Below, in pieces: positions 1 to 17,174 of a DNA stretch of 64,000 nt. How positions within the stretch are numbered: the first letter of the stretch is position 1; the number at the start of each line of letters is the position of its first letter. Below the pieces are notes generated by a model. That model had not been told where the DNA came from. It made no database searches and saw nothing but the letters and a program-made list of their open reading frames with translations. Both the position numbers and the translations under genes were made by a program. Source of the DNA: Planctomycetota bacterium (GTDB taxonomy: Bacteria; Planctomycetota; UBA8108; SXIK01); the NCBI GenBank assembly GCA_965223265.1, contig OZ244999.1, positions 3,392,001 to 3,456,000 of the forward strand, written 5' to 3'.

Positions 1-164
1 GGCTCGTCGCGTTCGACCCAATTCTCGCCAAGGAGGCCTGACGGGAATTCGCTGAGCGCTTTGATGGGTTGCACGAAACGCGGCGTCTCGACAATCTTGT
101 CGTGAACGAAGCGGATTCCAAACGCGACCCATAGGACTGAGGCGAGCACAACCAGTCGATTCAC
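1..164 (-). CDS. Exosortase-associated EpsI-family protein, 5' part only (runs off the window)
   Basis: GTG overlaps the exosortase TGA (GTGA, 161-164). Open frame MNRLVVLASVLWVAFGIRFVHDKIVETPRFVQPIKALSEFPSGLLGENWVERDE has an N-terminal TM segment and an 'LSEFP...W' EpsI-like motif. Not in the ORF track. Confidence 0.65.
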   Translation of the reverse strand, partial: MNRLVVLASVLWVAFGIRFVHDKIVETPRFVQPIKALSEFPSGLLGENWVERDE

Positions 165-1108
165 AACACTTCGCCCTCCTGCGGCTTCGGGGGAAACACC
201 CACGCGAAGAAGCGGTAGCCGGCAAAGAGGAGGAGGAGACTGAGCACAAAGACTGCGACCCCCACAGCATCGTGCGCGAACCCGCTCGTCAGATCGATGT
301 TGAACTTGTGTAGGCAGGCAGCGACGACGCAAATCCTCACTACATTGACGGCGATCGTTACCGGCACAGCCGTCAGCGTCAGCAGGATGGCTGCCGGCCA
401 GCGGAGCGCGAAGAGGTACGCCATAAGCGTTGACGTCGCTGTGATCGCAACGAGCGAACGGATGCCGCTGCAGGCGTCAGCGACCTCGAGCTGCACGCTA
501 CCAAGGAGGAGCACGTTGCCTTCGGGAAAGGCCGGGACGCCAGTTCGTAGGAGCAATTCGGCGGAGAGGGAGGTGGCGATGGATTTGAGTCCAATGCGGA
601 CGGGCTCGAGGATTGGATTCGGGGGCGGAATGCAGAATAGAAGGAAAAAGAACGGGAACGGGTGCGCTCGCATGAACGCGCGGCCAGTCGCGAACCAAAC
701 CGCCCCCACGATACTCATCCAGAGGGCCAAACGTTCCACCGAGTGGATCGCGGTCAGTCGACCCGCAGCGAAGAGGAGGAGGCCGGTGGCGAGTAAGAAA
801 GCGCCCGCTCGATCGTGTTGACGCGGTAGCTGTGCGATCTCGCGGCGGCGGCCATAGAGGATCGCCGCGGAGATGATCGGAACGAGAAAACCATGCGAGA
901 ACTCGTCATGACGTGACCAATACTCCACGACGGCAACGAGCGTTGGCCAGAATAGCCCCACAAATCCCACGATAGCGAGGATCAGCGGGACTCGAGATCG
1001 CTCGAGAAAGCTCCCAATGGGAGCTATGGAGGTAGATGCGCGGGTGGGAATGGACATACGGCCACAACACCGGAAGATGATCAGGATTCCTATCCAGCGG
1101 CTGGACAT
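161..1108 (-). CDS. Exosortase (EpsH/Xrt family transpeptidase)
   Basis: Multi-TM protein with 'FSHGFLVP' and catalytic Cys/Arg/His motifs VADACSGIRS, NVVRI and AHDAVG. True start may be ATG 1057. Confidence 0.93.
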   Translation of the reverse strand: MSSRWIGILIIFRCCGRMSIPTRASTSIAPIGSFLERSRVPLILAIVGFVGLFWPTLVAVVEYWSRHDEFSHGFLVPIISAAILYGRRREIAQLPRQHDRAGAFLLATGLLLFAAGRLTAIHSVERLALWMSIVGAVWFATGRAFMRAHPFPFFFLLFCIPPPNPILEPVRIGLKSIATSLSAELLLRTGVPAFPEGNVLLLGSVQLEVADACSGIRSLVAITATSTLMAYLFALRWPAAILLTLTAVPVTIAVNVVRICVVAACLHKFNIDLTSGFAHDAVGVAVFVLSLLLLFAGYRFFAWVFPPKPQEGEVL

Positions 1109-1172
1109 TATAGCTCGTTACGGGAGGCGAACTACCGTGTTCTTGCGCGCTGTTGCTGACAGTGAAACGGGG

Positions 1173-1188
1173 TGCAATCGCCATGCCT
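1173..1188 (-). promoter_or_regulatory. Sigma-54 (-24/-12) promoter for the exosortase operon
   Basis: Minus strand reads aGGCAT-ggcga-TTGCA, with exact GG-N10-GC spacing, about 65 bp upstream of the exosortase ORF. Confidence 0.65.
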
Positions 1189-1577
1189 ACGTTACCGGAC
1201 GGTAGCGAGCGCCGGTGACGTGAGGCCTCCTATTCTCTCCTCGGCGAGCTTCGAAATCCCTCAGGTTTTCTCTGACTGGTCTCCAGGCGACCCATTGTCC
1301 CCGGCCTCAACGTTCTTCGACTGAACCACAGATCCGTGAGGAGGTCGCTCAACTTGGACAACCACGTTGCTCTTTCTATAATGAGCTGCCGACGATAGAA
1401 GGAGACCGCGAGCAGTGCGTCCCGTCGAGTTGAGCCGGAATCTGCTGTTCTGGCGTGGACTCGATCCGGACCAGATGCAAGCCATGGCCACCCAGCGCGC
1501 GCACCTCAGGCGACGCTAGTTCGAACATGCATAGACCTATCCGACCCGAGACGTTTCGTTCTCGGCCACGCTCCCTA

Positions 1578-1734
1578 CGCAGGGTCATTGAGAAAAAAAT
1601 CCGGCCGAGAAACTGAACTCTTCATGCCCAACTTGGGGCAATACTGGAAAGTCCCGAAGATGATGTGCGTTTGTCCCGGCCAATCTGGACGCGAATGACT
1701 CGATCTCGACTCGAAACACTTTTTCAGCCGGCTG
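1578..1734 (-). mobile_element. MITE family B, diverged copy
   Basis: Reverse complement CAGCCGGCTGAAAAAGTGTTTCGAG...GCGTCCAGATTGGCCG...CAGTTTCTCGGCCG...TTCTCAATGACCCTG aligns with the copies at 7351, 39898 and 59854. Confidence 0.75.
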
Positions 1735-1785
1735 TTGGGCGTCTGCCCGGCCCTCTGTTCTACGGTTTGCAGACTCCGGTATTCG

Positions 1786-3162
1786 ATGAACGACTTTAGA
1801 TCCGAGTTTGCCGACAACACGACGCTTCACCCCGTCAGTATCGCGGCCGTGATCATCCTTGGGACGGCGCTGATCGCCCTGCCGCGCCGTTTTGCGACGT
1901 TCCCGCTCGTGCTCGTCGCCTGCTTTATTCCTGTCGCTCAACGACTCGTTGTCGCAGGCTTCGATTTCTCGTTGTTGCGTTTGATGATTCTCTTTGGCTG
2001 GACCCGGCTCTTCACGCGCGACGAAATCGCAGGGTTTCGATGGAAACGATTGGATACGCTGATCTGCCTTTGGGCTGCCGCGAAGATCATCACCTTCACG
2101 ATCTGTTTCGGAACGGTCGGCGCTTTCGTCAACCGATTGGGTGGCGCTTTCGAGGCGGTAGGGCTCTATTTTCTCTTTCGGTGCTTGTTGCAAAACCTTG
2201 ACGACGTCGACGCGACGATTCGTAGCTTTATGATCGTGAGCATCCCGGTAGCGTTTGTCTTCATGATCGAAAACATGACCCGGCACAATTTGTTTTCGGT
2301 GTTCGGTGGCGTGCCTGCTGTGACCATGATTCGAGACGGCCGGCTGCGCTGTCAGGGCGCGTTTTCCCATCCCATCATCGCGGGCTGTTTCTGGGCTACG
2401 CTCATCCCCTTAATGGCAGCGCGCTGGTGGAGAGCCCGAGCCCGAACGTTCGTCGTTGCGGCATTTGCCGCCTCCTTCGCAATCATCATTTTCGTTGCCT
2501 CGAGCACGCCGCTCGCGGGCGTGGCGGCTGCCGTGCTCGGCGCAGCGCTATTCCCAATGCGCGAAAACATGCGGGCGCTTCGTTGGAGTTTTGTGTTTGT
2601 CGTTGTTTGTCTTGACATCGTCATGAAAGCCCCGGTTTGGCACCTCATCTCGCGCGTCGATCTTGTCGGTGGATCGACCGGGTACCATAGATATCTTCTC
2701 GTCGATAGCGCGATTCGGAACTTCAACGAGTGGTGGTTGGTCGGCACGGCGTCAACACATCATTGGGGGCATATGATGTACGATGTCGCGAACCAATACG
2801 TGCTCGAGGGTGTGCAGGGGGGGGCCATTTCACTGCTCTTGTTTCTTTTGATGGTGGCGACCGCCTTCGGGGGCGTCGGTCGTTTTTGGCGCTCGGTGAA
2901 ACACGATAAGGGCCAGGTGATCATGGCGTGGGCGCTTGGCATTTCCCTCTTCGTACACACGGTGAATTTCATCGGCGTGTCTTACTTCGGACAGATCACC
3001 ATGCTGTGGTTTATGTTGCTTGCGATTATTGTCACGTTGGATCCAGCCGGTGCCGCGCCGCAGACGTCACGAGTTGTTGAGGAGGAGGACGACGAGCGCT
3101 CGACCGCGAAGATCCAGAGCCAGCCGCGACGAACTCCGTATCTGGGCGCTTTGGTGAGGTGA
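1786..3162 (+). CDS. O-antigen ligase / Wzy polymerase-like membrane protein
   Basis: About 11-12 TM segments with 'RCQGAFSHPI' and 'DVANQY' motifs, in a polysaccharide locus. Start moved to ATG 1786 because the ORF-track TTG sits at the MITE edge. Confidence 0.75.
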   Translation: MNDFRSEFADNTTLHPVSIAAVIILGTALIALPRRFATFPLVLVACFIPVAQRLVVAGFDFSLLRLMILFGWTRLFTRDEIAGFRWKRLDTLICLWAAAKIITFTICFGTVGAFVNRLGGAFEAVGLYFLFRCLLQNLDDVDATIRSFMIVSIPVAFVFMIENMTRHNLFSVFGGVPAVTMIRDGRLRCQGAFSHPIIAGCFWATLIPLMAARWWRARARTFVVAAFAASFAIIIFVASSTPLAGVAAAVLGAALFPMRENMRALRWSFVFVVVCLDIVMKAPVWHLISRVDLVGGSTGYHRYLLVDSAIRNFNEWWLVGTASTHHWGHMMYDVANQYVLEGVQGGAISLLLFLLMVATAFGGVGRFWRSVKHDKGQVIMAWALGISLFVHTVNFIGVSYFGQITMLWFMLLAIIVTLDPAGAAPQTSRVVEEEDDERSTAKIQSQPRRTPYLGALVR

Positions 3163-3298
3163 ATTCCCGCACTCCCGACACGCTTCTCGTCGCCGCCAAC
3201 ATGGCTGATACAGTCGTGGTGTTGAAAAGCGGCGCCGGGGCCGACGAGCTTTCACCGCCACGTCGACAAGGACTCCGATCTCCTCACCGAAAACGCAC

Positions 3299-4078
3299 TT
3301 GACCTACGAGATGACATCTACACCGACTGTCGCGTTCGTTTGCCTTGTCAATCGTCATGACGAGTACGACGCGACGCGAAGGACCCTCGAACCACAGTTT
3401 TCGAGCGGCGATCTGGAGTGCATTCCCGTTCGTGCCGACGAACGAAAGTGGAACGCAGCGGTTGGCTTGAATCACGGTATTGATGCGAGCTCGGCTGATT
3501 GGATCGTCTGCGCCCACCAAGACGTGCGCTTTCCGTCGTCGTGGTGGGAACGAGCCTCCGCACAGCTTCGATCTTGGCGTGGAACAGTAGGTATTGCGGG
3601 GTTGGTTGGCGTTCAGCGCTCGGGAAGATTCGTCGGGCATGTCGTTGATCCGCACGGACACTGTCGTTGGCGTCCCTTGCCGGCGCGCGTCTGCAGTGTT
3701 GACGAGCATGTGATCATCATTCGTCGCGACAGCGGTCTGCGGTTCGATCCAGAGAATCCACACTTTCACTGTTATGGAACCGATATTGCGTTGACAGCGG
3801 CGCGTGACGGCCAGGACGCCATCGTGATCGATGCCCCGGTCTTGCATCTTTCGGGAGGGAAACTCGACGATCGATTTGGAGTTGCATCGGAGTGGCTACT
3901 TGAGAAATGGGGGGGCAGCATGAACGACGTTATTCCAACGTGCGCCGCTGTGATCGCGCGTCAGCGGCACAGGAATTCCCTGCGACGACTACGGGTCCGA
4001 CTGACCCGGCGCCAAAGCCGGACCCGGCGTCACTGCGACTGTGAGTTTGATGTTTCGGAGTTGGTTGATGAGAGCTGA
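3299..4078 (+). CDS. Glycosyltransferase, GT2-like (GT-A fold)
   Basis: Motifs 'GLNHGI...WIVCAHQDV', 'SVDE', 'FHCYGTDI' and 'VLHLSGG'. Confidence 0.85.
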   Translation: MTYEMTSTPTVAFVCLVNRHDEYDATRRTLEPQFSSGDLECIPVRADERKWNAAVGLNHGIDASSADWIVCAHQDVRFPSSWWERASAQLRSWRGTVGIAGLVGVQRSGRFVGHVVDPHGHCRWRPLPARVCSVDEHVIIIRRDSGLRFDPENPHFHCYGTDIALTAARDGQDAIVIDAPVLHLSGGKLDDRFGVASEWLLEKWGGSMNDVIPTCAAVIARQRHRNSLRRLRVRLTRRQSRTRRHCDCEFDVSELVDES

Positions 4079-5501
4079 GACAGCTCCTCTCTCGGTGCTG
4101 ATTGTCGCGTACTATTTTCCCCCACACGGCGGAGCCGGTACGCAGCGGTTCGCCAAGTTCGTCCAGTACTTGCCTGAGTTCGGGGTCACACCGATCGTCG
4201 TCACCTCCGACGCACGCGACACAAATCCGAACGCACCGGTGCGCGACGACGCCATTCAAGTTCCGCCGGGAACAAAAGTCATCCGCGTCGCAGGCGAGTC
4301 GACCCCGCGCACGCTGATGCAGCGCATTCGACGCCGTGCAAGGTTGATCGCGGACTACGACGAATGGGTAGCGCTCGCCTGGCCTGTTGTTGAGGCTGCG
4401 ATCGAAGAGCACCGTCCGGACGCCGTCATCACGACACTGTCACCGTACGCAGCATCTGACCTGGGGATCCGTGTTCAGCGCCGTTTCCGTCTGCCGTGGA
4501 TCGTCGACCTGCGAGACCCGTGGGCACTGGATGGCTGGAGAGTCTACCCCACCTACATCCACGCGCTTTTCGATCTTAACCGCATGCGGCGTACCTTATC
4601 CCTGGCAGACATCGTTGTTGCGAATACACCCGCATCTCGACGCGAATACGAGAATCTAGTGCCTGCTGCGAGGGGCAAAACGTGGACGATCTCGAATGGG
4701 TTTGATCCGGCAGATTTTTCCGGGGGAACTCAGAGCGGGGACCGCGAAACCTTCTCGAGTCGGTCGTGTGAGGAGGGTGGCGACGTCTTCCGATTGGCTC
4801 ACATCGGCACGCTTCACAATGTCGACGAGCCTCGGCCGACGTTTTTTGAACGATGCCGGCAGAAGAGCTGGCGCCGAGTTGAGTATTCGGCAAGATCAGG
4901 TCGTCATCTCTTTGAGGCTGTCGCGAGACTGAAACGATCCGCCCCCGACTTGTTCGCGCATCTGCGCCTCGAATTGGTCGGGATCGTCCATCCTAGTCAT
5001 CGACGACTGGCGGCGAGACTGGACATCTCCGATCACGTTTTCGAGCATGGCTATCAGCGACATCGAGATTCGCTCAAGATCCTCGAGCGCAGCTCTGCGG
5101 TATTCCTCCCACTTCATGCGATTCCCGACGGGGAGGAGGCGCTCATCGTTCCTGGTAAGACTTACGAAGCACTCGCGAGCGGAAAACACATCATCGCGGC
5201 GTTTCCAGACGGAGACGGAAAGCGGCTCATAGAGATGAGTGGAGCCGGTCGAGTGTGCAGTCCGACTTCAGCGTCGGGACTCTACGAAGCGCTCCGCGAG
5301 GCCATCGCGCTCTGGCGTGACGGGAGTCCCTGCTTGGGTGCGCGACGAGCTGATCTGGAACCATTCACCAGAAGAAGTTTAACGCGTCGACTCGCCGCTG
5401 CGATTGGTTTCGTTACCGGACGACGGCACGAAGCCTTGCTCGACGACCCCTGGAAAGAACTGGAGCGACGAATCGAAGAACGCGGCAGTGCTGTCTCCTG
5501 A
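4068..5501 (+). CDS. Glycosyltransferase, GT4 family (GT-B fold)
   Basis: Motifs 'AYYFPPHGGAGTQR', 'DLRDPW', 'ISNGFDPADF' and 'PGKTYEALASGK'. Confidence 0.9.
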   Translation: MRAETAPLSVLIVAYYFPPHGGAGTQRFAKFVQYLPEFGVTPIVVTSDARDTNPNAPVRDDAIQVPPGTKVIRVAGESTPRTLMQRIRRRARLIADYDEWVALAWPVVEAAIEEHRPDAVITTLSPYAASDLGIRVQRRFRLPWIVDLRDPWALDGWRVYPTYIHALFDLNRMRRTLSLADIVVANTPASRREYENLVPAARGKTWTISNGFDPADFSGGTQSGDRETFSSRSCEEGGDVFRLAHIGTLHNVDEPRPTFFERCRQKSWRRVEYSARSGRHLFEAVARLKRSAPDLFAHLRLELVGIVHPSHRRLAARLDISDHVFEHGYQRHRDSLKILERSSAVFLPLHAIPDGEEALIVPGKTYEALASGKHIIAAFPDGDGKRLIEMSGAGRVCSPTSASGLYEALREAIALWRDGSPCLGARRADLEPFTRRSLTRRLAAAIGFVTGRRHEALLDDPWKELERRIEERGSAVS

Positions 5502-5707
5502 CGTCGAAACCGACGGTTCCGTACCCACTTCGACTCTTCCGACGGGTCCGTCCACCGCTGGGCGAATTGCCGATATTTTTCGAGGACGGTTCAATTTCGG
5601 ATCCGTTAAGCTCCGCCACGATGAACGGTCGAAGTCTAAAGATGTGCACACGTCTTACGCTGCACGTCTGTCTGTTGCAGCACACTTGACTCCTGGCTCT
5701 TCTTTCG

Positions 5708-6442
5708 ATGTCTGCTCGTTTGACTCCGACAACCACGACTCCTGAAGACGCAATCACTGCGGTCGACGATGGGCCAACGAGTCCCTCGTGTCCGCTCGTA
5801 AGTTGCCTCAACTTTCACGGGGTAGGTACTCCTTGCCGCGAGCTCGAGCCTGGTGAGCAAGACTTTTGGATCTCCGCTGAGTCATTCGAGGCGATACTCA
5901 CAGCCGTCGGGTCGCTTGGGCCCGTCATGATTACCGTAGACGATGGGAACAAGTCTGACGTGGAGACCGTGCTTCCGATCTTGCAGCGGTTCTCTCTCTC
6001 TGCGACTTTCTTCGTCGTTGCGGGACGTGTGAATGCGCCTGGGTTTCTTTCCGCGGACGACATCAGATGCCTGACGGAAGCGGGCATGCGCATCGGCTCG
6101 CACGGCATGACGCACCGGTGCTGGCGTGGCATGACTCAGAGGCAGATGAACGAAGAGTTCGTCGCTGCGAGGAAGTGTCTCGAAACGGTGGTGGGGGAAC
6201 CGGTCGACGAAGCGGCCTGTCCGTTTGGAAGCTACGGCCGCCGAGTGCTGTCACAATTGCGTCAACTCGGCTACCGGCGTGTCTACACAAGTGACGGCGC
6301 ACCGCCGAGGCCCGGCGCGTGGCTCATGTCTCGACTGCCGATTCGACGCCGTCATTCTGCGCAGCAGATCGCCGAAGAGATCGCACGTCAGCGCGGGCAC
6401 TGGTTCAGACGGTTCAAAATGATGCTGAAGCAGCTCGTCTGA
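5708..6442 (+). CDS. Polysaccharide deacetylase (CE4/NodB family)
   Basis: Motifs 'ITVDDG', 'IGSHGMTH' and 'ACPFG'. Confidence 0.9.
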   Translation: MSARLTPTTTTPEDAITAVDDGPTSPSCPLVSCLNFHGVGTPCRELEPGEQDFWISAESFEAILTAVGSLGPVMITVDDGNKSDVETVLPILQRFSLSATFFVVAGRVNAPGFLSADDIRCLTEAGMRIGSHGMTHRCWRGMTQRQMNEEFVAARKCLETVVGEPVDEAACPFGSYGRRVLSQLRQLGYRRVYTSDGAPPRPGAWLMSRLPIRRRHSAQQIAEEIARQRGHWFRRFKMMLKQLV

Positions 6443-6454
6443 CCGCACATGTAA

Positions 6455-6605
6455 GCTGCGCGCAGAGAAAGTCATTCGGCCGAGAAACAGAGCCGCTCAC
6501 GCCCAACTCGACCGCGTACTCGCCGTGCTCGTATGATCAACAGGCCCGACGAGGACTACAGTCGAGATGGGCACGAATGACTCGGTTTTCGACTTCGAGA
6601 CGACT
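6455..6605 (-). mobile_element. MITE family B, degenerate copy
   Basis: Reverse complement contains CGCGGTCGAGTTGGGCGTGAG...GTTTCTCGGCCGAATGACTTTCTC, matching the right half of the 39898 copy. The terminal repeats are eroded. Confidence 0.6.
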
Positions 6606-6625
6606 ACGCCTCAAACGCAATCGAT

Positions 6626-7057
6626 TTACGGAGCCAGTGCGTCTGCTGCAAGTTCGTCCGACGGCAAGCTCTCGTTGCCGTACCAGTCGTACGCGGCCAC
6701 CGAGATGTAGTACCGTCCCGGCGCCAGGTCCTGGAGGACGACACTGGTGAGACTTCCGACGTCCGTCGCGGTGTCGTACTGTCCGCTGGTCGGGCCGTCG
6801 TAAACAACGTAGCCGGCGACATCATTGGCTACCGTGCCATCGGGGTTCGTAGAGACGGGATCCCACTCGATGGCAATGCTTGCTGCGCCTTCCTCTGGTC
6901 GCTCGGGAGTCTCGTTTGGAGACTGCACATCCGTCGGCGTAGACGGATCCACGCCTCGATTGGCAACGTCGGATTCTTCGCCGCAACCGATGCACATCGC
7001 AAGAGCGCAAGCGACTGCGACCCGTCGCCAGCTCGTCAAGGTCGTTTTCTGTAACAT
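6626..7057 (-). CDS. Putative lipoprotein with a fibronectin type III domain
   Basis: Signal peptide ending in the lipobox-like 'MCIGC'. FN3 pattern 'EWDP...VAGYVVY...LAPGRYYISVAAYD..GNES..S'. Purine-rich RBS before ATG 7057. Confidence 0.8.
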   Translation of the reverse strand: MLQKTTLTSWRRVAVACALAMCIGCGEESDVANRGVDPSTPTDVQSPNETPERPEEGAASIAIEWDPVSTNPDGTVANDVAGYVVYDGPTSGQYDTATDVGSLTSVVLQDLAPGRYYISVAAYDWYGNESLPSDELAADALAP

Positions 7058-7135
7058 GACTCTCTCCCCGCTTTTCTCCTTACGTCGCGAACGAGACTTC
7101 GAAACGAACGAAACGGAACCAACGATTACCGGCCT

Positions 7136-7151
7136 TGCAACGCAAGTGCCG
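7136..7151 (-). promoter_or_regulatory. Sigma-54 (-24/-12) promoter for the FN3 lipoprotein gene
   Basis: Minus strand reads cGGCAC-ttgcg-TTGCA, a near-consensus match about 80 bp upstream of ATG 7057. Confidence 0.72.
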
Positions 7152-7350
7152 ATATCCAAACATCTCCCCTAACATTGTTGATCATTGGCAGTTGTATCGC
7201 GTCGTCAGGAGTCCAGGGCGAGTGAGGGACCGGTAAGAATTGCCACGATCGAGTTTTCGGCCGGGGCGAAATGCCTTGGTGGTGCAGCCGTGACCACAAA
7301 TGAAGTCAGCGCGCTCGCAGCGATGGCCGATGGAGAGAGTAGTCGTCTAA

Positions 7351-7509
7351 CAGCCGGTTGAATGAGTGCTTCGAGTCGAGGACTGGTCGCTCCGTGTTCG
7401 GATCGGCCGTGGCAAGCGCATGGAGTCTCCGAGATTCTCGAGTGTTGACACGGTCCAGCTGGGCGTAAAGAAGCCAGTTCCTCGGCCGAGTGACTCTTTC
7501 AACAGGCTG
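7351..7509 (+). mobile_element. MITE family B, full copy with CTAA flanking duplication
   Basis: Imperfect TIRs CAGCCGGTTGAATGAGT and ACTCTTTCAACAGGCTG. CTAA lies on both sides (7347-7350 and 7510-7513). Ends 45 bp upstream of the NRPS ATG. Confidence 0.8.
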
Positions 7510-7554
7510 CTAACCGTCTCTCTGCAGTTGCATGCCGCCGCCTGAGGTTTCCCC

Positions 7555-10500
7555 ATGCCGAAGAACGAACACGACGCTGTATTCGTCGGAAACGACGTCT
7601 TGCTAATCGAGTGTGCCCGTCGTTGGAGGGAGCGTGGCCACGCCGTAAGCCGTGTCGTGACCGAGGCAAAGAAGGTGTCCATGTGGGCTCAAGCTGAAGG
7701 CATCTCAGTGTGCACAAGTGCGGAGGCCGCGTGGGAAGACCGCGAGAGCACTGATTTCCTCTTCAGCATTAGCTACCTTGATGTCCTGCCGCGCGAGGCG
7801 ATCTCGCTAGCGACAGAGGGGGCGATCAACTTCCACGACGGCCCGTTGCCGCGATATGCTGGCCTCAACACTCCAGTATGGGCACTCATCAACCGCGAGA
7901 ACAAGTACGGCATCACTTGGCATTTGCTTGAGTCGCAGATCGACGCCGGAGACATTGTCTGTCAGCGGCTTTTCGATCTCGAGCCAGGTGATACAGCTGT
8001 GTCCGTTAACACGAAGTGTTTTCAAGCCGCAATTGACGGTTTTGAAGAATTGCTCGATCGACTCGAACGTGGAGAGCTCGAACGTCGGGCGCAAGATCAA
8101 ACGCAGCGAAGCTACTACAGAAAGTACCAGCGGCCTCCGGCTGCGTGCGTGATCGACTGGACTCGGTCGGCCAAGGAGATCGAGGCACTGGTTCGCGCTC
8201 TCGACTTTGGGCGCTACCGAAACCCCGTGGGCGTCGCGAAGCTCGTTAAACAAGGAAAGGCTTTCTGCGTCCGAAAAGCTCGAATCGGCGCTGATGAGAA
8301 CGACGCGTCTCCGGGAACCGTGATCGCGGTCGAGCCGGCTGAAATCACTGTCGCGACTGGCGACGGCCTCCTAGCCATTCAGAGTGTGTCAACGCTGGAA
8401 GGACGGGAGGTCAGTCTTGATGATCTTGCGACCGAGCTCCGTCTGACTCCCGGGGCTCGCCTGGACCTGTTGTCGCCGGAGATGCATGAAGAGCTGACGG
8501 GGTATGCTGAATCGCTAGCCCGTTCAGAGGAGTTCTGGGCGCAGCGTTTGCACGAGCTTTCGCCGCTTGACGCCCGCGCCTTGTTCCCGGAGCGAGCCGG
8601 CGGCCGTTTGACGAACACCTCAGCTCGATCGTTGCCGATTGCTGTGCCGCGTTCGTTCGCAGAGGCGTTCACCAATCTGGGACTGGCGGAAGCACTTTCC
8701 GGCGCGATAGGGGCGTATCTGTCCCGCCTCTGCAATGAGCACGAGTTCGACATAGGATTCGTGGGAGACGCACTTCGTCGACAGAGTGCGCGTTTCGATG
8801 CTTTCACCACGCCGGTCGTGCCGCTTCATTTTCGTTTCGCGCCTGACCAACGTTTCGACACGTTCATGAATTCACTGATCTGGGAACTGGACCAGGTCCG
8901 CACCCACCAGACGTGGTTGCGAGATCTTGTCTCAAGAGTTTCTGACTTGCACGGGCGTGTCGATTTGACGCGTCGTAGTGTGTGCCCGATCGTGATCTCG
9001 GTACAAGAACCAGGCGAAACGCTTCATCTGGCCGATGCTGATCTGGCTTTCGCGATCACAGATGATTTTGAAGCCTGCCACTGCATCTTCAACTCGAGCA
9101 TCTTTGACAGCGCCGCCGTAGTCGCGCTGGTTGCACGCCTTGAGGCATTCTTGGCTCAGATAGCGAGTCAACCAGACGCGCCGATCTCGGCGCTGAATCT
9201 GCTTCCGGATGCCGAGCGCGAAAAGTTGATCTGTGAATGGAATCAGACGGAAGTCGACGTCCCGCAGGACGTCTGTGTTCATCAGTTGATCGAAGAACAA
9301 GCGAGAAAATCCCCGAGTGCCGTCGCTGTCGTTGTTGACGAACGGGAGTTCACGTACGAACAACTGGATGAGCGCGCGAACGAGCTAGCGGCTTACCTTG
9401 CCCACCGGGGTGTCGGGCCGGAGTCGATTGTCGGCATTTGCCTCGAGCGATCGATTGACGCACTAGTCTCGATCATCGGTATCCACAAGGCGGGTGGCTG
9501 TTATCTTCCCCTCGACCCGTCACTGCCGCGCGACCGTATCGCTTTCGTCCTCAAGGATTCTCAGGCGAGCTTGGTACTGACACACGAGGCTCTGAGGTCG
9601 ACGCTTCCGGATGGTGAGTTTGAGCTCGTCTCCATCGACGCCGAGTGGGATGAAATTCGCGCCACGGAGGTTCCCCCCGTCGCGGCGCTCCCGGTCGGTG
9701 CAAACGCTGCCTACGTCACGTATACGTCCGGGTCGACCGGTAGCCCAAAGGGTGTCGTGGTGGAGCACCGCAACGTCGTCAATTTCTTCGTCGCCATGGA
9801 TCGCTGCATCGGCAACGACGCCGGTGGCGTTTGGCTCGCCGTGACGAACTTGTCCTTCGATATCTCGGTTCTTGAACTGCTCTGGACTCTGGCGCGCGGA
9901 TTCAAAATTGTTCTCTACAGCGGGTCGGAAAGTCATAGGCCTCGCAAAAGGAAAACAACAGCCGCTAGCGTGGCGCTAAGCCTTTACTACTTCTCAAGCC
10001 ACGAGGGCGCCGATGATCGTCGCTATCGGCTCCTCCACGAGGGAGCGAAATTCGCGGACGAGCATGGATTCGAGGCTGTGTGGACCCCGGAGCGGCATTT
10101 TCACGCCTTCGGTGGTCTTTATCCTAACCCGGCGGTAACGAGCGCTGCCCTCGCGACAATCACCCAGCGGGTTCACCTTCGCGCCGGGAGCGTCGTCCTG
10201 CCACTTCACCATCCAATTCGCGTTGCAGAGGATTGGGCGGTCGTGGACAACCTCTCGGGCGGCCGAGTTGGGATTTCGTTCGCGTCAGGCTGGCAGCCGG
10301 CAGATTTCGTCTTGGCGCCGGAGAACTATGCCGACGCGAAGGAAATCATGTTTCGAAACATTGAGCTCGTCCAGCGTTTGTGGCGAGGCGAGACGGTGAA
10401 CTTTCCTGGTCCCAAAGGTGATGTTTCAGTACGAACGCTGCCGCGCCCGACTCAATCAGAGCTGCCGACCTGGGTGACGACGGCGGGGAACATCGACACC

Positions 10501-12237
10501 TACCGCCGTGCGGGCGAAACAGGAGCATTCGTTCTGACCCACCTGCTTGGACAGTCGATCGAAGAGCTGATTCCGAAGATCCAAGCATACCGCGAAGCGA
10601 GGCAGAATCACGGGTACGATCCGTCAACGGGTAGAGTGACCCTTATGCTTCACACCTTCGTTGGCGACAGCGATGCTGAAGCACGCGAGCTGGTCAGGGG
10701 GCCGCTGAAAGAATACCTCGGAAGCTCACTCAACCTGATCAAGAAGTACGCTTGGGCGTTTCCGACTTTCAAGAAACCTCAAGACAGCGAGGCTGCGCCG
10801 GAAGATGAATTCGAAAAACTGACCGACGCGGATCATGAGGCTATTCTCGAGCATGCGTTCGAGCGCTACTACACGTCGAGTGGGCTTCTCGGAGACGTAG
10901 GCCATTGTCTCGATCGCGTCGAAGAGCTAGGTGCTGCGGGGGTTGACGAGATCGCCTGTCTGGTCGACTTCGGCGTTGGTGAGTCCGACGTCCTCAGAGC
11001 ATTGCCGCGACTTGACGCAGTGCGCCAGAGAGGGCAAGCAGGTCGAGCGGATGGCCCAAGTGGCCACTCCTCGATTGCAGATCTGATGCGGCGACATCGC
11101 GTCACGCATTTTCAATGCACACCGTCGATGATCCGCATCCTCATGCAAGACCCCGACGCGCGCGCATCGTTCGGCGGTTTGAAACATCTCTTGCTCGGCG
11201 GCGAAGCGTTTCCCGAGGATCTACTGGGCGAACTGCGGACAGTCGTTGGGGGGCGCATCACGAACATGTACGGTCCGACGGAGACGACGGTGTGGTCGTC
11301 GGTTCACGACGTCGGACCGGACGCTGAACGCGTACCAATCGGGCGCCCGGTCGCCAACACGAAGCTCTACGTCCTCAACGGCGAGTTAGAGCCAGTACCG
11401 GTCGGGGTGCCTGGCGAGCTCTACATTGGGGGAGCCGGCGTGACCCGAGGCTACTTGCACCAACCTGAATTGACCGCGCAGCGTTTTCTAGAGGACCCGT
11501 TCGACACGAACTCGGGACGGATCTACCGAACCGGAGATCTTGTCCGCGTTGGTCCCGACGGGGTCGTCGAGTTTCTCGGCCGCACAGACTATCAAGTAAA
11601 GATCCGCGGGCACCGCGTTGAGCTCGAGGAGATCGAGGCGCAGCTCGGTCGGCACCCAAGCGTGAAGACAGCAGCAGTGGTCATTCGCCAAGTCGGCGCC
11701 GATGACTCCTCGCTTGTTGCCTTCCTGGAGTGTCCTACCACCCCGCCGGCGACGAAAGAACTTCGCACGTTCTTACGCCGGGAGCTTCCGGACTACATGT
11801 GCCCGTCACGATTCGCCTTCGTCGACTCGATGCCCCTAACGACCAACGGGAAAATCGATCGCAAAGGCCTCCCCGACCTCAGCGAGGTAAGAACCGCGAC
11901 CCGCGAGGTGGAACTCGTCGCACCTGCAAACGACACTGAATCAAGTCTAGCGCAGATTTGGCAGGATCTCCTCGAAATCCCAGCTGTGAGCGTGCGCGAG
12001 AACTTCTTCGATCTAGGCGGTAACTCGTTGCTGGTCGTCCGACTCCAGAGGGAGCTGGAGAGTCGACTCGGCCTCAAGTGCTCGCTGACTGACCTGTACC
12101 GCCACCCGACGATTCACTCCTTCGCTGCTTCTCTGGCTGGAGAACCTAGGGAATCTCTCGCGACGGATGCGGGGCGCGGAAAACGTCGCCGAGAGGCGCT
12201 ACAACGACGGCGACGGGGAAAGCAGGGAGCTCAATGA
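7555..12237 (+). CDS. Stand-alone NRPS-like protein: formyltransferase, degenerate C domain, adenylation domain interrupted by a luciferase-like monooxygenase (MupA/Atu3671 type), PCP
   Basis: Formyltransferase 'INFHDGPLPRYAG'; A3 'YTSGSTGSPKG'; A4 'SFDISV'; LLM 'AVWTPERHFHAFGGLYPNP'; A5 'NMYGPTETT'; A7 'YRTGD'; A10 'NGKIDR'; PCP 'FFDLGGNSLL'. No thioesterase. Confidence 0.92.
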   Translation: MPKNEHDAVFVGNDVLLIECARRWRERGHAVSRVVTEAKKVSMWAQAEGISVCTSAEAAWEDRESTDFLFSISYLDVLPREAISLATEGAINFHDGPLPRYAGLNTPVWALINRENKYGITWHLLESQIDAGDIVCQRLFDLEPGDTAVSVNTKCFQAAIDGFEELLDRLERGELERRAQDQTQRSYYRKYQRPPAACVIDWTRSAKEIEALVRALDFGRYRNPVGVAKLVKQGKAFCVRKARIGADENDASPGTVIAVEPAEITVATGDGLLAIQSVSTLEGREVSLDDLATELRLTPGARLDLLSPEMHEELTGYAESLARSEEFWAQRLHELSPLDARALFPERAGGRLTNTSARSLPIAVPRSFAEAFTNLGLAEALSGAIGAYLSRLCNEHEFDIGFVGDALRRQSARFDAFTTPVVPLHFRFAPDQRFDTFMNSLIWELDQVRTHQTWLRDLVSRVSDLHGRVDLTRRSVCPIVISVQEPGETLHLADADLAFAITDDFEACHCIFNSSIFDSAAVVALVARLEAFLAQIASQPDAPISALNLLPDAEREKLICEWNQTEVDVPQDVCVHQLIEEQARKSPSAVAVVVDEREFTYEQLDERANELAAYLAHRGVGPESIVGICLERSIDALVSIIGIHKAGGCYLPLDPSLPRDRIAFVLKDSQASLVLTHEALRSTLPDGEFELVSIDAEWDEIRATEVPPVAALPVGANAAYVTYTSGSTGSPKGVVVEHRNVVNFFVAMDRCIGNDAGGVWLAVTNLSFDISVLELLWTLARGFKIVLYSGSESHRPRKRKTTAASVALSLYYFSSHEGADDRRYRLLHEGAKFADEHGFEAVWTPERHFHAFGGLYPNPAVTSAALATITQRVHLRAGSVVLPLHHPIRVAEDWAVVDNLSGGRVGISFASGWQPADFVLAPENYADAKEIMFRNIELVQRLWRGETVNFPGPKGDVSVRTLPRPTQSELPTWVTTAGNIDTYRRAGETGAFVLTHLLGQSIEELIPKIQAYREARQNHGYDPSTGRVTLMLHTFVGDSDAEARELVRGPLKEYLGSSLNLIKKYAWAFPTFKKPQDSEAAPEDEFEKLTDADHEAILEHAFERYYTSSGLLGDVGHCLDRVEELGAAGVDEIACLVDFGVGESDVLRALPRLDAVRQRGQAGRADGPSGHSSIADLMRRHRVTHFQCTPSMIRILMQDPDARASFGGLKHLLLGGEAFPEDLLGELRTVVGGRITNMYGPTETTVWSSVHDVGPDAERVPIGRPVANTKLYVLNGELEPVPVGVPGELYIGGAGVTRGYLHQPELTAQRFLEDPFDTNSGRIYRTGDLVRVGPDGVVEFLGRTDYQVKIRGHRVELEEIEAQLGRHPSVKTAAVVIRQVGADDSSLVAFLECPTTPPATKELRTFLRRELPDYMCPSRFAFVDSMPLTTNGKIDRKGLPDLSEVRTATREVELVAPANDTESSLAQIWQDLLEIPAVSVRENFFDLGGNSLLVVRLQRELESRLGLKCSLTDLYRHPTIHSFAASLAGEPRESLATDAGRGKRRREALQRRRRGKQGAQ

Positions 12238-12923
12238 CCACTGAGGCGCAACACGCTGCAGCGTCGGCGCCGTTGCAGCCCAGCGCGATCGCGCCTCTGT
12301 TCCCCGCAGGTGTGATCGTTGAGACCGAACTGGCTTGCTGTGACCCGGTCCGCGCCGCTTCGAAGCGCCAGGCGGCACGAAACTCTCGCGCGGCAGAGCG
12401 CGACGCCGGACGACGCGCTGCACTGCGGGCGCTACGTCGTCTCGGATGCCATGAGGGTGCGCTCGACTCTCAGGCCAATGGTGCACCGGTGTGGCCGCGG
12501 GGATTCGTAGGCAGCATTTCGCACACTGTCGGTCAATGCATCTCGATTGTCGCGCGGCGTGACGATTTCGTCTCGGTCGGCGTCGACATCGAGCCCTTTA
12601 TCGGTATACCGCCAGATCTCTGGAGCACGATTTGCACGCCAGCTGAACTCGATTGGTTGCGCTACGGTCGCAACGACCAGGAAGATTTGGCGCGCCTGAT
12701 TTTCTCCGCGAAGGAGAGTGTCTATAAGTGCCAATTTCCCGAGACCGACAGATTCCTGGAGTTTACAGACGTCAGGCTCTGTCTCGATCTGTGCAGCCAT
12801 CACTTTTCTGTAGGACAAACGAGTGACACGACGCTGGACCAGGTTTTGCTGCGCATCTTGGGGAGCTGGGCCGTGGCCGACTCTTGGCTTGTCACTTTCG
12901 CAGCCCTTCCGGAGCCGCGGTAG
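12234..12923 (+). CDS. 4'-phosphopantetheinyl transferase (EntD/Sfp-like)
   Basis: Motifs 'PVWPRGFVGSISHT', 'VGVDIE' and 'FSAKESVYK'. ATGA overlap with the NRPS stop. Confidence 0.93.
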   Translation: MTTEAQHAAASAPLQPSAIAPLFPAGVIVETELACCDPVRAASKRQAARNSRAAERDAGRRAALRALRRLGCHEGALDSQANGAPVWPRGFVGSISHTVGQCISIVARRDDFVSVGVDIEPFIGIPPDLWSTICTPAELDWLRYGRNDQEDLARLIFSAKESVYKCQFPETDRFLEFTDVRLCLDLCSHHFSVGQTSDTTLDQVLLRILGSWAVADSWLVTFAALPEPR

Positions 12924-13228
12924 GTCGAAGACGCATTGATCAACTGAATTTGGGGCGCGAGCAGAAGCCACAGCGACCGTCGTTTATGGGTTCATCGGCC
13001 GCTTTCTCGTCGTCCTACCATTGGGCTAATTTTTTCACGCCCTCATTCCGACGACCAGAGAGAGGACCACGTGTCCGCTGCGCATCGACTCCCCGTGTTG
13101 ACACCTGGAGCTGTTCGGCTTAGATGTACTCGCCCCTAGCGAACGAGGAGACGTTTGCCGCTAGGTTCAGTCCATACGGCGGATGCGCAACTGTAGGGAA
13201 TCGCATCGAGCTTAGAAGGCAATCGCTG

Positions 13229-14113
13229 ATGAAGAGTCTGCGCAGCGTTTATTTGCTAGGTGGATCAGTACGGCGTTCGCCTCTGACCGCAGCTCTCGGA
13301 CGCTCGGCGATCGATCTTCCTATCGACCCTGACCGCAGCGTGCTCGGCGCTTGGCAGAGTCACGTTGGAGATCTCGCGCAGCGCAATGGAAGTGATTCGC
13401 TTGCACTTCGAGTGATCCTGGACCGCACTGCCCCAGAACCGGCCCCACGACAATCTCCTTTTGGCGTCGAGCTTTCAATCGAGCGCGACCCGATTGAGTT
13501 TCGCGGCACCGCCGGCGTGCTGAAAGACGTCACCTCCGAACTCTCCGACGATGAGCTCATCTTGGTTGGTAACGCCTCGCAACTGCTTTTGCGGCCCCTG
13601 GCGACGTTGGTGGACGCTTTGGCTGACGAGGCAGCCGACTTCGTCGCTTTGTCGCACGCCGACGGCACACCAAGCGGGCTGATGCTGCTGCGGCGCGCCT
13701 GTCTGACGCTCATCCCCGACATCGGATTTATCGACATGAAGGAACAGGCGATCCCAATGATCGCAAAGGATTTCACGGTTCGCATCATCGAACACCCTGA
13801 ACGAACAGGTGTCCCCATGCGGACCTGTGCAGAGTACGTCTCGGCACTACAGTTCTATCACCGGCGCAATGTCGGTAGTGCCGCTGAGAACGATCCCTTC
13901 GCGGAGGAGTGGCGTTCGTCATTCGCGATCGTTGAGAAGGGAGCCGAGGTAGGTCAAGACGTGGTCATTCATGACTCTGTGGTGCTGGCCGGCGCGCGCG
14001 TTGAGGAACAGGCCTTTCTTGTCCGCTCCATTGTTGGTTCAATGGGAACCATTCGTGGCCATCAAACGGTGGTGAATCAGGTTGTTTCCGCCGGGGTCAG
14101 AGAATCGCTGTGA
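13229..14113 (+). CDS. Degenerate sugar-phosphate nucleotidyltransferase-like protein with C-terminal hexapeptide repeats
   Basis: 'VYLLGGSVRRSPL' is a degenerate version of the GGxGTRLxPLT motif. Also 'GTAGVLK' and a beta-helix-like tail 'VEKGAEVGQDVVIHDSVVLAGARV'. Confidence 0.65.
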   Translation: MKSLRSVYLLGGSVRRSPLTAALGRSAIDLPIDPDRSVLGAWQSHVGDLAQRNGSDSLALRVILDRTAPEPAPRQSPFGVELSIERDPIEFRGTAGVLKDVTSELSDDELILVGNASQLLLRPLATLVDALADEAADFVALSHADGTPSGLMLLRRACLTLIPDIGFIDMKEQAIPMIAKDFTVRIIEHPERTGVPMRTCAEYVSALQFYHRRNVGSAAENDPFAEEWRSSFAIVEKGAEVGQDVVIHDSVVLAGARVEEQAFLVRSIVGSMGTIRGHQTVVNQVVSAGVRESL

Positions 14114-14123
14114 GTCAGAGTGA

Positions 14124-15647
14124 TTGGAGGCTCGCCGAAAGTTGCCTGAAATGCAGGTGTTAGACCAAAACACGTCGACGGATCTCGCGCCCCCGACGTT
14201 GTGGGGGTTACCACCAGTGCAACTTCACGACAGCTTTTGGGCCGCTGCCGGTGTCCAGGTCGTACGGCGCGACGAGGAGCTGGACATCGACCAGAACGCT
14301 GGGCTCTATCTCCTTTGCGACTCCAACATGCTCGTCCTGTTCGAGCTGCCCCGTATCAGCCATGCCTTCAGCAGTGGCCGCACGAAAGCGATCATCTTCC
14401 GCGTCGCGGATCGCTTCGACGAAGGATACCGAGAAATCGCCGTCACTACGGACAACGAACGGAGTGTCCGATTCGAGCGGGTCTATCGCAATAGTGCACC
14501 ACGGATTTCTCGCTTGATTCTAACGACGGACCCCAAGATCGCGACCGAGTGGTGTACGACCGCCGAGGCGAGGTCCAGCTGGCGACTGATGTTCGAGTTG
14601 ATATCTCCAGTCTCGCGCACGGTCTCGACCGAGGATGGAAGGATTTTCGATCTCGAGTCAGAAAGAGAAGTGATGGACTTTGTGCGCGAGCTGCTCACGC
14701 GGTGGAAGTCACCGAACAGCGTCATCGATCGTGTGCGGGAGATTCGCTCGGGGGTGTGGGTCGACCATGATGCGGTGATCGCGGACAACGCAAGGCTTGT
14801 GGGGCCGCTCTGGGTTGGATCGGGTAGAGAGATCGATTCGCGCACGACCGCAGCCGGACCAGCCGTGATGTGGGACGCGCCGGATGCGAGGCCGAGCACC
14901 AACGGATTCTCGATCGCGCGGCTCAATGGTGCGATGGTGCGTGGATCGTCGCCGCGTCGATCGCGGTGTTGCCCGAAGACTTACTTCGGCAAACGCACGC
15001 TCGACATCATGATTTCGCTCGTCGCATTGGCGATCACGTTGCCATTCTATCCGTTGATTATGCTGGTCATTTGGTTGGATGACCGACGTCCGTTTTTTTT
15101 CGCGCATCAACGTGAGACGGTCGGTGGGACCGACTTTCCGTGCATCAAGTTTCGCACGATGCGGCGCGACGCAGAAAAACTCGCAGAGAAATTTGCCGCA
15201 CAGAATCAAGCCGACGGCCCTCAGGTCAATATCAAAGACGACCCTCGCTTGCTCCGCGTCGGCTCATTCCTTCGCAAAGCGAACATCGATGAACTGCCGC
15301 AATTCTTCAACGTGCTTCTCGGTCATATGTCCGTCGTCGGGCCGCGGCCGAGCCCCTTCAAAGAGAATCAGTTCTGCCCACCCTGGCGCGAGGGACGTCT
15401 GAGCGTCAGGCCTGGCATCACGGGACTTTGGCAAGTGTGTCGAACGCGTGAACCAGGAATCGACTTTCAGGAGTGGGTACGCTACGACCTCGAGTACGTC
15501 GAAAAGATGTCGCTGAAGCTCGACCTATGGATCCTCTGCCGTACCGTGGTCACCATCATTCGTCCGATCCTCCAAAAGCTGAAATCGAAGTCAAAGCGTG
15601 CGGCCGCAGACAGCGACGAGCAGACGCCTCGGAATCCAGAGTCGTGA
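14124..15647 (+). CDS. Priming (initiating) sugar transferase with a long N-terminal extension
   Basis: C-terminal bacterial sugar transferase motifs 'KRTLDI', 'KFRTM', 'DELPQFFNVLLGHMSVVGPRP', 'RPGITGLWQV' and 'DLEYV'. Confidence 0.9.
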   Translation: MEARRKLPEMQVLDQNTSTDLAPPTLWGLPPVQLHDSFWAAAGVQVVRRDEELDIDQNAGLYLLCDSNMLVLFELPRISHAFSSGRTKAIIFRVADRFDEGYREIAVTTDNERSVRFERVYRNSAPRISRLILTTDPKIATEWCTTAEARSSWRLMFELISPVSRTVSTEDGRIFDLESEREVMDFVRELLTRWKSPNSVIDRVREIRSGVWVDHDAVIADNARLVGPLWVGSGREIDSRTTAAGPAVMWDAPDARPSTNGFSIARLNGAMVRGSSPRRSRCCPKTYFGKRTLDIMISLVALAITLPFYPLIMLVIWLDDRRPFFFAHQRETVGGTDFPCIKFRTMRRDAEKLAEKFAAQNQADGPQVNIKDDPRLLRVGSFLRKANIDELPQFFNVLLGHMSVVGPRPSPFKENQFCPPWREGRLSVRPGITGLWQVCRTREPGIDFQEWVRYDLEYVEKMSLKLDLWILCRTVVTIIRPILQKLKSKSKRAAADSDEQTPRNPES

Positions 15648-15662
15648 CTTCGATTCGCGGCT

Positions 15663-17174
15663 CTATAAAAGCTCTTGAATGACTTCGCCTTCGGCGTCGG
15701 TGAGCCGCTCCTGGCGACCGTTATGGAGAACCGTCAGGTCGAAATGGTCGAGGCCCAGGAGGTGAAGAATCGTAGCGTGGAGATCGTTGACGTGGCAGCG
15801 ATGTTCGACGGCGCGCAGGCCAAGCTCGTCGGTCGCACCGACAATGCGTCCTCCCTGGACTCCTCCGCCCGCCATCCAGAAGCTGAATCCGAATGGGTTG
15901 TGATCGCGTCCATACTTTCCCTGAGACATGGGAGTGCGTCCGAACTCCCCGCCCCAGACGACCAGCGTCGAGTCGAGCAGGCCGCGCTGACGTAGATCTT
16001 TGAGCAAGGCTGCGACGGGCTGGTCGGACTGACGCGCCATGCGCTTGTGGTTTTCTTCCACATTGCCGTGTGCATCCCAGGTCAAATTGCCGGGCCCGCC
16101 GCCGTGATAAAGCTGCACGAAACGGACGCCGCGCTCGACGAGGCGACGGGCAAGAAGACACCGTCGTCCGAATTCGGCGGTTGTCGCGTTCTCGAGCCCA
16201 TAGAGCTCGCGGGTGGCTTGTGGCTCCCGCGTCAAATCGACGGCTTCCGGTGCGTGAGCTTGCATGCGAAACGCCAGCTCATAGGCCGCCGCTCGCGCAT
16301 CGAGCTCGTCGTCGACTCCGTTTCTCTGGAGATCATTCAGCTCCCGAAGTAGGTCCAGGCTGCGACGCTGTTGCGAGCGGCTTCGATTGCCGGCTGGTTT
16401 GAGGTCGAAAATTGGATGGTCGCCGGGGTGCAGAATCGTGCCCTGATAAACAGCGGGCAAAAATCCTGAGCTCCAGCAAGGCGGACCGCCAGTGAGCGGA
16501 CCGTCCGGGTCGAGCATGACTACGAACGCCGGCAGGTTTTGCGATTCGCTGCCGAGACCGTAGAGCACCCACGAGCCAAGACTGGGGAATCCCATGAGTG
16601 TGCGTCCGCTGTTCATCTGGTACATCGCGGGCGCGTGCGTGACGCTGTCGGCGTGGCAGGAGCGAATCACGGAGATGTCATCCACGCACGTCGACAGATG
16701 CGGAAACAGGTCTGAGACTTCGATGCCGGAGTTGCCGCAGCGGGAAAAGCTGCGGTGACAACGGAGCAGGAGAGATTTCTCGGTCGTCCGCTGCGTCATG
16801 ACGTTCCCGAAGCTTGGCGGCAACGGTTGACCATGAAGACGACCCAGGAGCGGCTTGGGGTCAAACGTCTCCATTTGGCTCGGCCCGCCAACCATAAACA
16901 GAAAAATCACGGACTTGGCCTGCGGCGCGAAGTCAGCTGATTTCGGTGCCAACGGAGCCGCCGCTGAGTCGTTGCGGTTGGACCCGCCTCGCTGCTTGGC
17001 CTCTAGGACACCTTCTTCAGCCAGCAAAGAAGCCAAAGCGATGGAGCCGAAACCCATACCGCTTTCAGTCAAGAAGCGGCGACGAGAGGTCGTACGACCC
17101 GGGCCAAGGCAGCGTTGAAGAGGACTCATGGAGTGATGCGACGTTGGCATGGACATTCTGCTCAATGGATCCAA
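15663..17174 (-). CDS. DUF1501 family protein
   Basis: 'SRRRFL', '[16 protein letters not shown]', '[13 protein letters not shown]' and 'WGGEFGRTP...GRDH'. Confidence 0.93.

Follow-up and report, generated by a model that had tools for sequence, protein, structure and literature searches.

What does a single-module non-ribosomal peptide synthetase (NRPS) make when it stands among genes for a surface polysaccharide? The question is raised by a locus on a planctomycete chromosome that is represented by a single 9.18 Mb contig (GenBank OZ244999.1, here C1) in a genome that is 91.65% complete (G000; G and L followed by a number label genomes and collected loci, respectively). The window, the whole stretch of DNA analysed, comprises 64 000 nucleotides (G000:C1:3392001-3456000), and positions without a contig name refer to it. 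It encodes an NRPS of 1560 residues (7555..12237, forward strand), whose stop codon overlaps the gene of an EntD/Sfp-type phosphopantetheinyl transferase (PPTase) of 229 residues (12234..12923, forward strand) in the letters ATGA at 12234-12237. A first-pass annotation of the window had proposed that the module works alone and transfers an oxidized formyl-glycyl unit to a glycan or lipid, in analogy to Dlt-type acylation. By its sequence, the NRPS is instead the starter of a known but product-less roseobacter-type cassette of NRPS and polyketide synthase (PKS), which here is split across the chromosome. We propose that the NRPS would load, formylate and hydroxylate glycine and hand it on to a distant PKS, and that the short-chain product would be placed on a surface glycan; this reading as a whole is given a probability of about 0.5. 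That the NRPS feeds the distant PKS is very probable, and, given this, it is moderately likely that the product serves a surface glycan.

Domains were called with Pfam and NCBIfam profiles against their curated cut-offs. They give the order formyltransferase (F), remnant of the C-terminal lobe of a condensation (C) domain, adenylation (A) domain with an enclosed monooxygenase, peptidyl carrier protein (PCP) and arginine-rich tail. The F domain occupies residues 1-293 (7555..8433, forward strand; Pfam), with Formyl_trans_N at 63-158 and Formyl_trans_C at 197-293. N92 and H94 are present in all 60 homologues and D130 in 59 of them; by analogy with the PurN/ArnA family we take these three residues to be catalytic. 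The hhalign match of residues 298-572 (8446..9270, forward strand) covers positions 167-466 in the starter C domains of C-type paralogues (probability 99.3), whereas the Pfam Condensation profile matches only in part (residues 376-558; model positions 250-455 out of 456) and scores 28.9 bits, under the cut-off of 30.6. The motif HHxxxDG was found by pattern search in nine of the 12 C-type paralogues that start with a full C domain, and in residues 300-580 of none of the 60 F-type homologues. The earlier description of a C-like region devoid of this motif is thus borne out, only the C-terminal part being alignable. The simplest reading of these alignments is that the formyltransferase took the place of the catalytic N-terminal part of the C domain, including HHxxxDG, either domain presumably serving to N-acylate glycine; this would make the protein a natural case of starter-unit engineering.

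The first part of the A domain (9292..9939, forward strand; Pfam and alignment; AMP-binding at residues 580-795) extends to the A4 motif with D769, I770 and L773. Between A4 and A5 lies a luciferase-like monooxygenase of family TIGR04020 (9976..11025, forward strand; NCBIfam), which matches all 341 model positions at residues 808-1157 with 490.9 bits (cut-off 244.45); the insert follows the A4 aspartate D769 and precedes Q1187 and the A5 motif (1237-1243). The second part (11071..11871, forward strand; NCBIfam and alignment) contains Q1187, G1215, M1238, W1247 and K1433, with AMP-binding_C at residues 1359-1433. It is followed by the PCP (11947..12129, forward strand; Pfam PP-binding at residues 1465-1525, attachment serine S1491) and by the arginine-rich tail (12130..12237, forward strand), recognized by homologue alignment. 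No thioesterase (TE) or other release domain was found in the NRPS by Pfam or NCBIfam.

The A-domain pocket consists of D769, I770, L773, Q1187, L1213, G1215, M1238, V1246, W1247 and K1433, in a register verified on alignments to LgrA. Under the GrsA position numbering, and compared with the reference glycine code, these residues predict glycine; all 60 homologues share the same D, I, L, Q, G, M, W and K. The alignment recovers the same residues that had been read by eye in the first pass, and the glycine code, formylation and oxidation proposed there are supported at the level of sequence. Among 197 monooxygenase-split A domains that were collected, D-I-L occurs in 197, Q in 191, G in 189 and W in 190, the deviating pockets being mostly truncated or gapped, and the glycine pocket is the same ahead of a PKS, an NRPS, a TE or an acyltransferase. 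This uniform predicted pocket ties the oxygenase to glycine. Because the split A domains are all glycine-coded whatever enzyme follows, action of the oxygenase on formyl-glycyl-PCP is favoured, and we consider it likely. α-Hydroxylation of an N-acyl-glycine has been proposed for MtaG and MelG (PMC11411415; this and the other articles cited by PMC number are cited from excerpts). Oxygenase-split glycine modules with a TE-like end, a layout of the MtaG type, occur in L049, L066 and L103. A stand-alone TIGR04020 gene in the source genome (L005:9737-10831, equal to G000:C1:6439737-6440831) is 51% identical to the embedded domain, with a GT2-WecG pair some 16 kb off and no link demonstrated.

Where would the glycyl unit go? 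The first-pass annotation had seen no PKS and no second module in the window, and indeed neither a ketosynthase (KS) nor a second A domain was found there. The tail, however, predicts a PKS as partner. R1541 and R1545 are invariant in the 60 homologues, and the arginine-rich pattern is found in 14 of 16 PCP-ending modules that precede a PKS, compared with none of nine that precede an NRPS C domain; it is also present in six of 23 PCP-ending modules with an unclassified downstream partner and in 99 of 104 single-module homologues. We therefore predict that the tail is a PCP-to-KS docking element, and the pattern offers an easy way to predict from sequence which kind of enzyme receives the unit.

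Nine KS matches were found in the genome, of which one lies in a type I frame. KS and domain profiles identify this frame, outside the window at G000:C1:7681967-7688386, as a PKS of 2139 residues with the order KS, acyltransferase (AT), ketoreductase (KR), dehydratase (DH), acyl carrier protein (ACP) and TE. It is separated from the NRPS by 4.28 Mb, and no NRPS or PPTase was seen in the 45 kb around it. The catalytic residues C187, H323, H363, S639, R664, H738, Y1335, H1423, D1594, S1818, S1958, D1985 and H2104 are present, and among 24 cassette PKSs those of KS, AT, KR, DH, ACP and TE are shared by 20-24. The genome has just one more NRPS pair (about 6.63 Mb, L130:7241-13727), which is self-contained, with the orders A-PCP and C-A-PCP-TE. 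PF01648 has two matches in the genome, the PPTase of the locus and a frame of 143 residues; the L130 pair has no PPTase match of its own and may depend on the window PPTase. Some 300 bp upstream, the orphan PKS is preceded by a 165 bp tandem duplication with 97% identity (L003:11341-11670).

The pairing of the two enzymes recurs in the phylum. TIGR04020 occurs in 15 of 401 phylum genomes and, within a frame of at least 900 residues, in 11; the KR-DH block of the PKS is present in all 11, the gene of G272 being split across two contig ends and that of G351 being a fused hybrid. Among the other 390 genomes, ten match the block at all and two (G071 and G113) nearly in full. In a set of 61 relatives, the block accompanies the F-C* region in six of six genomes and occurs alone in two incomplete genomes. 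Since kin are not independent, these counts overstate the co-occurrence. For 24 pairs, the tree distances of the NRPS correlate with those of the PKS (Mantel r 0.60). In a tree built on KS-AT with 37 rows, from which one row was left out, the PKS of G000 pairs with that of G219, a genome of the same family (support 87), and groups with the cassette PKSs outside a clade of seven other hybrid PKSs with a support of 100; the grouping was read from the tree without a formal clade test. A search of genome contigs with the NRPS protein alone gave three loci and no full-length match.

The same genomes connect the pair with surface glycans. An orthologous locus in G000, G188 and G120 comprises an exosortase, a TPR protein, a chain-length determinant, a kinase, a nucleotidyltransferase-like gene and a priming transferase. 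In G000 this locus contains the NRPS and PPTase. In G188 it contains the PKS, adjoining the orthologue of a lipoprotein-like gene, and the NRPS and PPTase are found on that contig at a distance of 3.8 Mb; in G120 it likewise contains the PKS, with the NRPS on a different contig. The PKS of G212 and G043 stands among Wza, Wzc, WecG and glycosyltransferase (GT) genes, with the NRPS elsewhere, and in G147 the two genes are 1.65 Mb apart on one contig. Across 12 inspected genomes, the pair lies within about 13 kb in three, is distant on one contig in three and is on separate contigs in six. These split and reciprocal layouts suggest that the two enzymes and the glycan locus form one system. A core glycan-export marker lies within about 10 kb of the NRPS or PKS in seven of the 12 genomes, compared with 1.9% of positions in G000, a background that is only a rough control because the marker set was derived from the loci tested. 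Among metagenomic F-type modules with at least 8 kb of flank, eight of 17 parsed loci have a core marker and 14 have any glycan gene, in a tally that omits at least six loci (L042, L044, L075, L086, L096 and L101). The proposed link to polysaccharide genes is thereby supported, except that the deacetylase, which had been named as a linked gene, is not a constant neighbour of the homologues.

A GT2 clade of 11 members also travels with the cassette, from Ruegeria to planctomycetes (L107:18970-19980, with orthologues in L011, L044, L062, L075, L084, L086, L101, L102, L112 and L113). The GT2 at C1:7640711, 41 kb from the PKS, was considered as a displaced member and rejected, as it falls outside the clade. 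A second GT2 family and a 2OG-Fe(II) oxygenase (five loci) recur with the cassette as well.

On this basis a reaction sequence can be outlined, of which we infer all chemical steps, the docking and the glycan destination. The overlapping PPTase would prime the PCP and probably the PKS carrier too. The A domain is predicted from its pocket to activate glycine, and the F domain, from its conserved residues, to N-formylate it. The flavin monooxygenase would then hydroxylate the glycyl α-carbon, as proposed for MtaG and MelG, after which the arginine-rich tail would dock on the KS of the distant PKS (C1:7681967). One malonyl-type extension followed by ketoreduction and dehydration might give a four-carbon unit of the formamido-hydroxy-butenoyl type, a speculative structure. 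Finally, to judge from gene context, the TE may release the product or transfer it to a sugar acceptor of the Wzx/Wzy-type locus. The malonyl-type extender is tentative, since the AT motif departs from the canonical form and is similar to GAAH, the motif of the hydroxymalonyl-specific AT of ZmaA (PMC4207774); hydroxymalonyl is a weak lead drawn from this analogy.

Nevertheless, several observations weigh against the proposed route. The AT motif is xA[A/G/S]H rather than the HAFH-type malonyl motif. The NRPS and PKS of G000 have different nearest neighbours in their respective trees, and part of the tree-distance correlation stems from close kin. Neither gene has clear core glycan markers nearby in five of the 12 genomes (G147, G398, G351 and G425, with G219 weakly marked), and in the first three no glycan markers at all were found near NRPS or PKS. 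No homologue of the window GT2, GT4 or Wzy-like gene was found in the other cassette loci, and the cassette GT2 clade has no member in G000 (91.65% complete), the best match (161 bits) lying outside the clade. No acyltransferase able to move the product onto a glycan was found at the NRPS locus, nor any protein over the TIGR03570 cut-off in the genome. As for the oxygenase, PF01613 flavin reductase was not found in the genome, a search that covered this reductase family only, and, according to the excerpts cited below, the related MupA acts, and PuwE is proposed to act, on polyketide-type chains rather than on glycine.

The last point leads to the alternative that the oxygenase acts one step later, on a β-ketoacyl chain on the PKS carrier, which would give a 2-hydroxy instead of a 4-hydroxy product and would be compatible with either fate of that product, on a glycan or free. 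MupA requires a β-ketoacyl-ACP, whose hydroxylation has been demonstrated in vitro (PMC10952193), and for PuwE, the closest solved relative of the embedded oxygenase (PDB 6KET, E value 7.9e-115), the substrate proposed for hydroxylation is a chain made by a PKS (PMC4219810). We nonetheless regard this timing as rather unlikely, because the oxygenase is embedded in a glycine-coded A domain even where a TE, an NRPS or an acyltransferase comes next and no PKS is at the locus. A further alternative is the original suggestion that the module works alone and passes an oxidized formyl-glycyl unit straight to a glycan or lipid. The window locus is without a PKS, and a tail-less, PKS-less subfamily with a TIGR03570 acyltransferase makes direct transfer plausible for its own members. 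The window NRPS, however, keeps the tail, and no TIGR03570 acyltransferase adjoins it; as far as gene content can tell, the counter-evidence named by the first-pass annotation itself, a partner PKS elsewhere, is present, since a PKS of the partner type is encoded in G000 and retained in all 11 genomes with an NRPS-size frame. The DltA models also score far below their cut-offs on the NRPS (NF003417, 282.8 versus 476; TIGR01734, 272.3 versus 559.85), and MBOAT/DltB and DltD had no match among the 22 window open reading frames (ORFs) scanned, a scan confined to the window. Stand-alone, Dlt-like action is therefore improbable.

If the NRPS does feed the PKS, the product could still be a free small molecule or simple glycoside (a signal, a reactive aldehyde or enoate, or a defence compound) that is only co-regulated with the surface polysaccharide. 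The PKS has a terminal TE in which Ser, Asp and His are all present, a TolC gene adjoins the PKS in Aminobacter, the dedicated GT2 could glycosylate a small aglycone, and the pairs of G147, G398 and G351 are without a core marker, as noted above. These observations keep the idea in play, yet it seems unlikely on balance, as the cassette lies repeatedly inside Wza/Wzc/Wzx/Wzy/exosortase loci in planctomycetes, alphaproteobacteria and metagenomes, and the excerpts of the 2016 report on the roseobacter cluster give no product (PMC5014874). It might also be asked whether the cassette is breaking up in this genome, its scattered genes being vestigial or put to a new use and the NRPS no longer serving its glycan locus. 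Both G000 proteins sit on long terminal branches, and the 4.28 Mb separation and the missing cassette GT2 would fit such decay. Both frames are intact with their catalytic residues retained, however, and in G188 (3.8 Mb) and G147 (1.65 Mb) two complete partners are likewise found far apart on a single contig, so that decay, too, is improbable. We thus retain hand-off of a hydroxylated formyl-glycyl unit to the distant PKS, and delivery of its product to a surface glycan, as the preferred reading.

The tail-less relatives form a sister type to which the window NRPS does not belong. In this split-glycine group the loci have no PKS, and a sugar acyltransferase of the NeuD/PglB/VioB family (TIGR03570, 167.5 versus a cut-off of 160.8) follows the NRPS directly. 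The loci L027, L028, L032, L033, L034, L037, L041 and L047 are one lineage with 81-99.6% identity; L048, 55% identical, is also tail-less and has the acyltransferase upstream of the NRPS. To judge from its sequences, this eight-locus lineage from L027 to L047 is the most promising candidate for passing its unit straight to an amino sugar. L051 (9938-15178) has an F-type module in an exopolysaccharide (EPS) locus, with no PKS there and a C-terminal extension of about 200 residues that, by eye, resembles an acyltransferase. Taking both types together, one may tentatively envisage a cross-phylum NRPS-PKS route to a hydroxylated, formyl-capped four-carbon amino acid unit for decorating or anchoring surface polysaccharide; its enzymes would dock via the arginine-rich tail and work megabases apart, with either one staying in the glycan locus, and the tail-less sister form would skip the PKS and give formyl-hydroxyglycine directly to a sugar N-acyltransferase. 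The product would then have to be sought in EPS or capsule and not in solvent extracts alone, and cluster-finding tools may miscall split genomes as having an isolated NRPS and, apart from it, an orphan PKS.

The remaining genes around the NRPS agree with a glycan locus. Over their Pfam cut-offs are an exosortase (161..1108, reverse strand), a GT4 glycosyltransferase (4041..5501), a polysaccharide deacetylase (5708..6442) and a priming glycosyl-phosphate transferase (Bac_transf, 14124..15647), the last three on the forward strand. A GT2-like glycosyltransferase (3299..4078, forward strand), distinct from the cassette GT2, is just below its cut-off (22.9 versus 23.3). The Wzy/O-antigen-ligase-like protein (1735..3162, forward strand) has no match in Pfam or NCBIfam and is a lead only, from ESM Atlas, where Wzy_C appears in 14% of one cluster set. 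A small lipoprotein-like gene (6626..7159, reverse strand), read by eye and without a Pfam match, lies between deacetylase and NRPS, and a nucleotidyltransferase-like protein of 329 residues (13124..14113, forward strand) keeps its place ahead of the priming transferase in both G188 and G120; neither gene is named in the first-pass annotation. Beyond the window, next to the exosortase, are TPR, chain-length-determinant-like and tyrosine-autokinase-like genes, the latter two scoring below their cut-offs. The features of an exosortase-linked EPS locus are present in the form of priming transferase, GTs, chain-length determinant, kinase and exosortase; flippase and Wza had no match at the locus with the marker set used. 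Apart from the lead status of the Wzy-like gene, the profiles confirm the module anatomy, PPTase coupling and glycan neighbours of the first-pass annotation. A second exosortase/EPS locus (L135, G000:C1:8090001-8110000), with Wza and Wzc matches just beyond it, might supply an alternative acceptor polymer.

One contig of run X2, possibly the source sample, covers positions 1-16500 of the window with zero differences; misassembly of the NRPS locus, the region that this check covered, is rejected as far as one contig can show. Promoter and terminator scans of the locus were at chance level (4 versus 3.2 and 11 versus 14.1), and no informative repeats were found around the NRPS. DUF1501, PSD1 and PSCyt2 genes (Pfam) are among the window neighbours and point to a planctomycete, and further ORFs resemble a group II intron reverse transcriptase (32030-33355, reverse strand) and, by eye only, a UDP-sugar dehydrogenase (60404-61723, reverse strand).

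How does this system compare with those already known? Dlt D-alanylation resembles it in the activation of a carrier-bound amino acid close to envelope-polymer genes; here, by contrast, no free carrier, MBOAT or DltD was seen at the locus, and the probable partner is a PKS. Formyl-glycine starters are represented by OzmO and CongA. The initiation module of LgrA (PDB 6MFZ) likewise has an N-terminal formyltransferase acting on the first aminoacyl-PCP, whereas the present NRPS has a C-domain C-lobe between F and A, and its A domain carries an oxygenase. MupA and PuwE share the TIGR04020 family, over the cut-off, and act on or beside a PKS carrier, while the oxygenase is here embedded in a glycine-type A domain. 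MtaG and MelG of myxothiazol and melithiazol biosynthesis (C-A-MOX-A-T-TE, where MOX is the monooxygenase and T the carrier) are also glycine modules with a monooxygenase inside the A domain (PMC11411415), a likeness by description rather than by direct alignment; they are terminal modules with an active C domain and a TE, as opposed to the formyltransferase starter, missing TE and PKS-type tail found here.

The closest counterpart is the roseobacter-type cassette, which has been ranked among secondary-metabolite clusters. A roseobacter PKS/NRPS cluster, that of Martens et al., has reportedly been known since 2007, and the Ruegeria conchae locus is matched to it by gene content (PKS, GT2, NRPS and PPTase). 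For the conserved roseobacter PKS/glycosyltransferase/NRPS/PPTase cluster, the excerpts of the later report state that the product was not identified (PMC5014874), and no literature naming the product or the split form was found in a search that most subscription journals lay outside. The window NRPS is 42.5% identical over 1540 aligned positions to that of R. conchae and 42% identical over its full length to that of the Aminobacter cassette; the PKS is 40% identical, again at full length, to the clustered genes on the R. conchae and Aminobacter plasmids, and the PPTase is 36% identical to that of the R. conchae locus. In the roseobacter form the PKS is clustered and accompanied by the GT2, whereas here the PKS lies megabases away and this GT2 is absent. 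Both forms nevertheless have the same domain orders, the overlap of NRPS and PPTase genes, and an exosortase and a priming transferase nearby.

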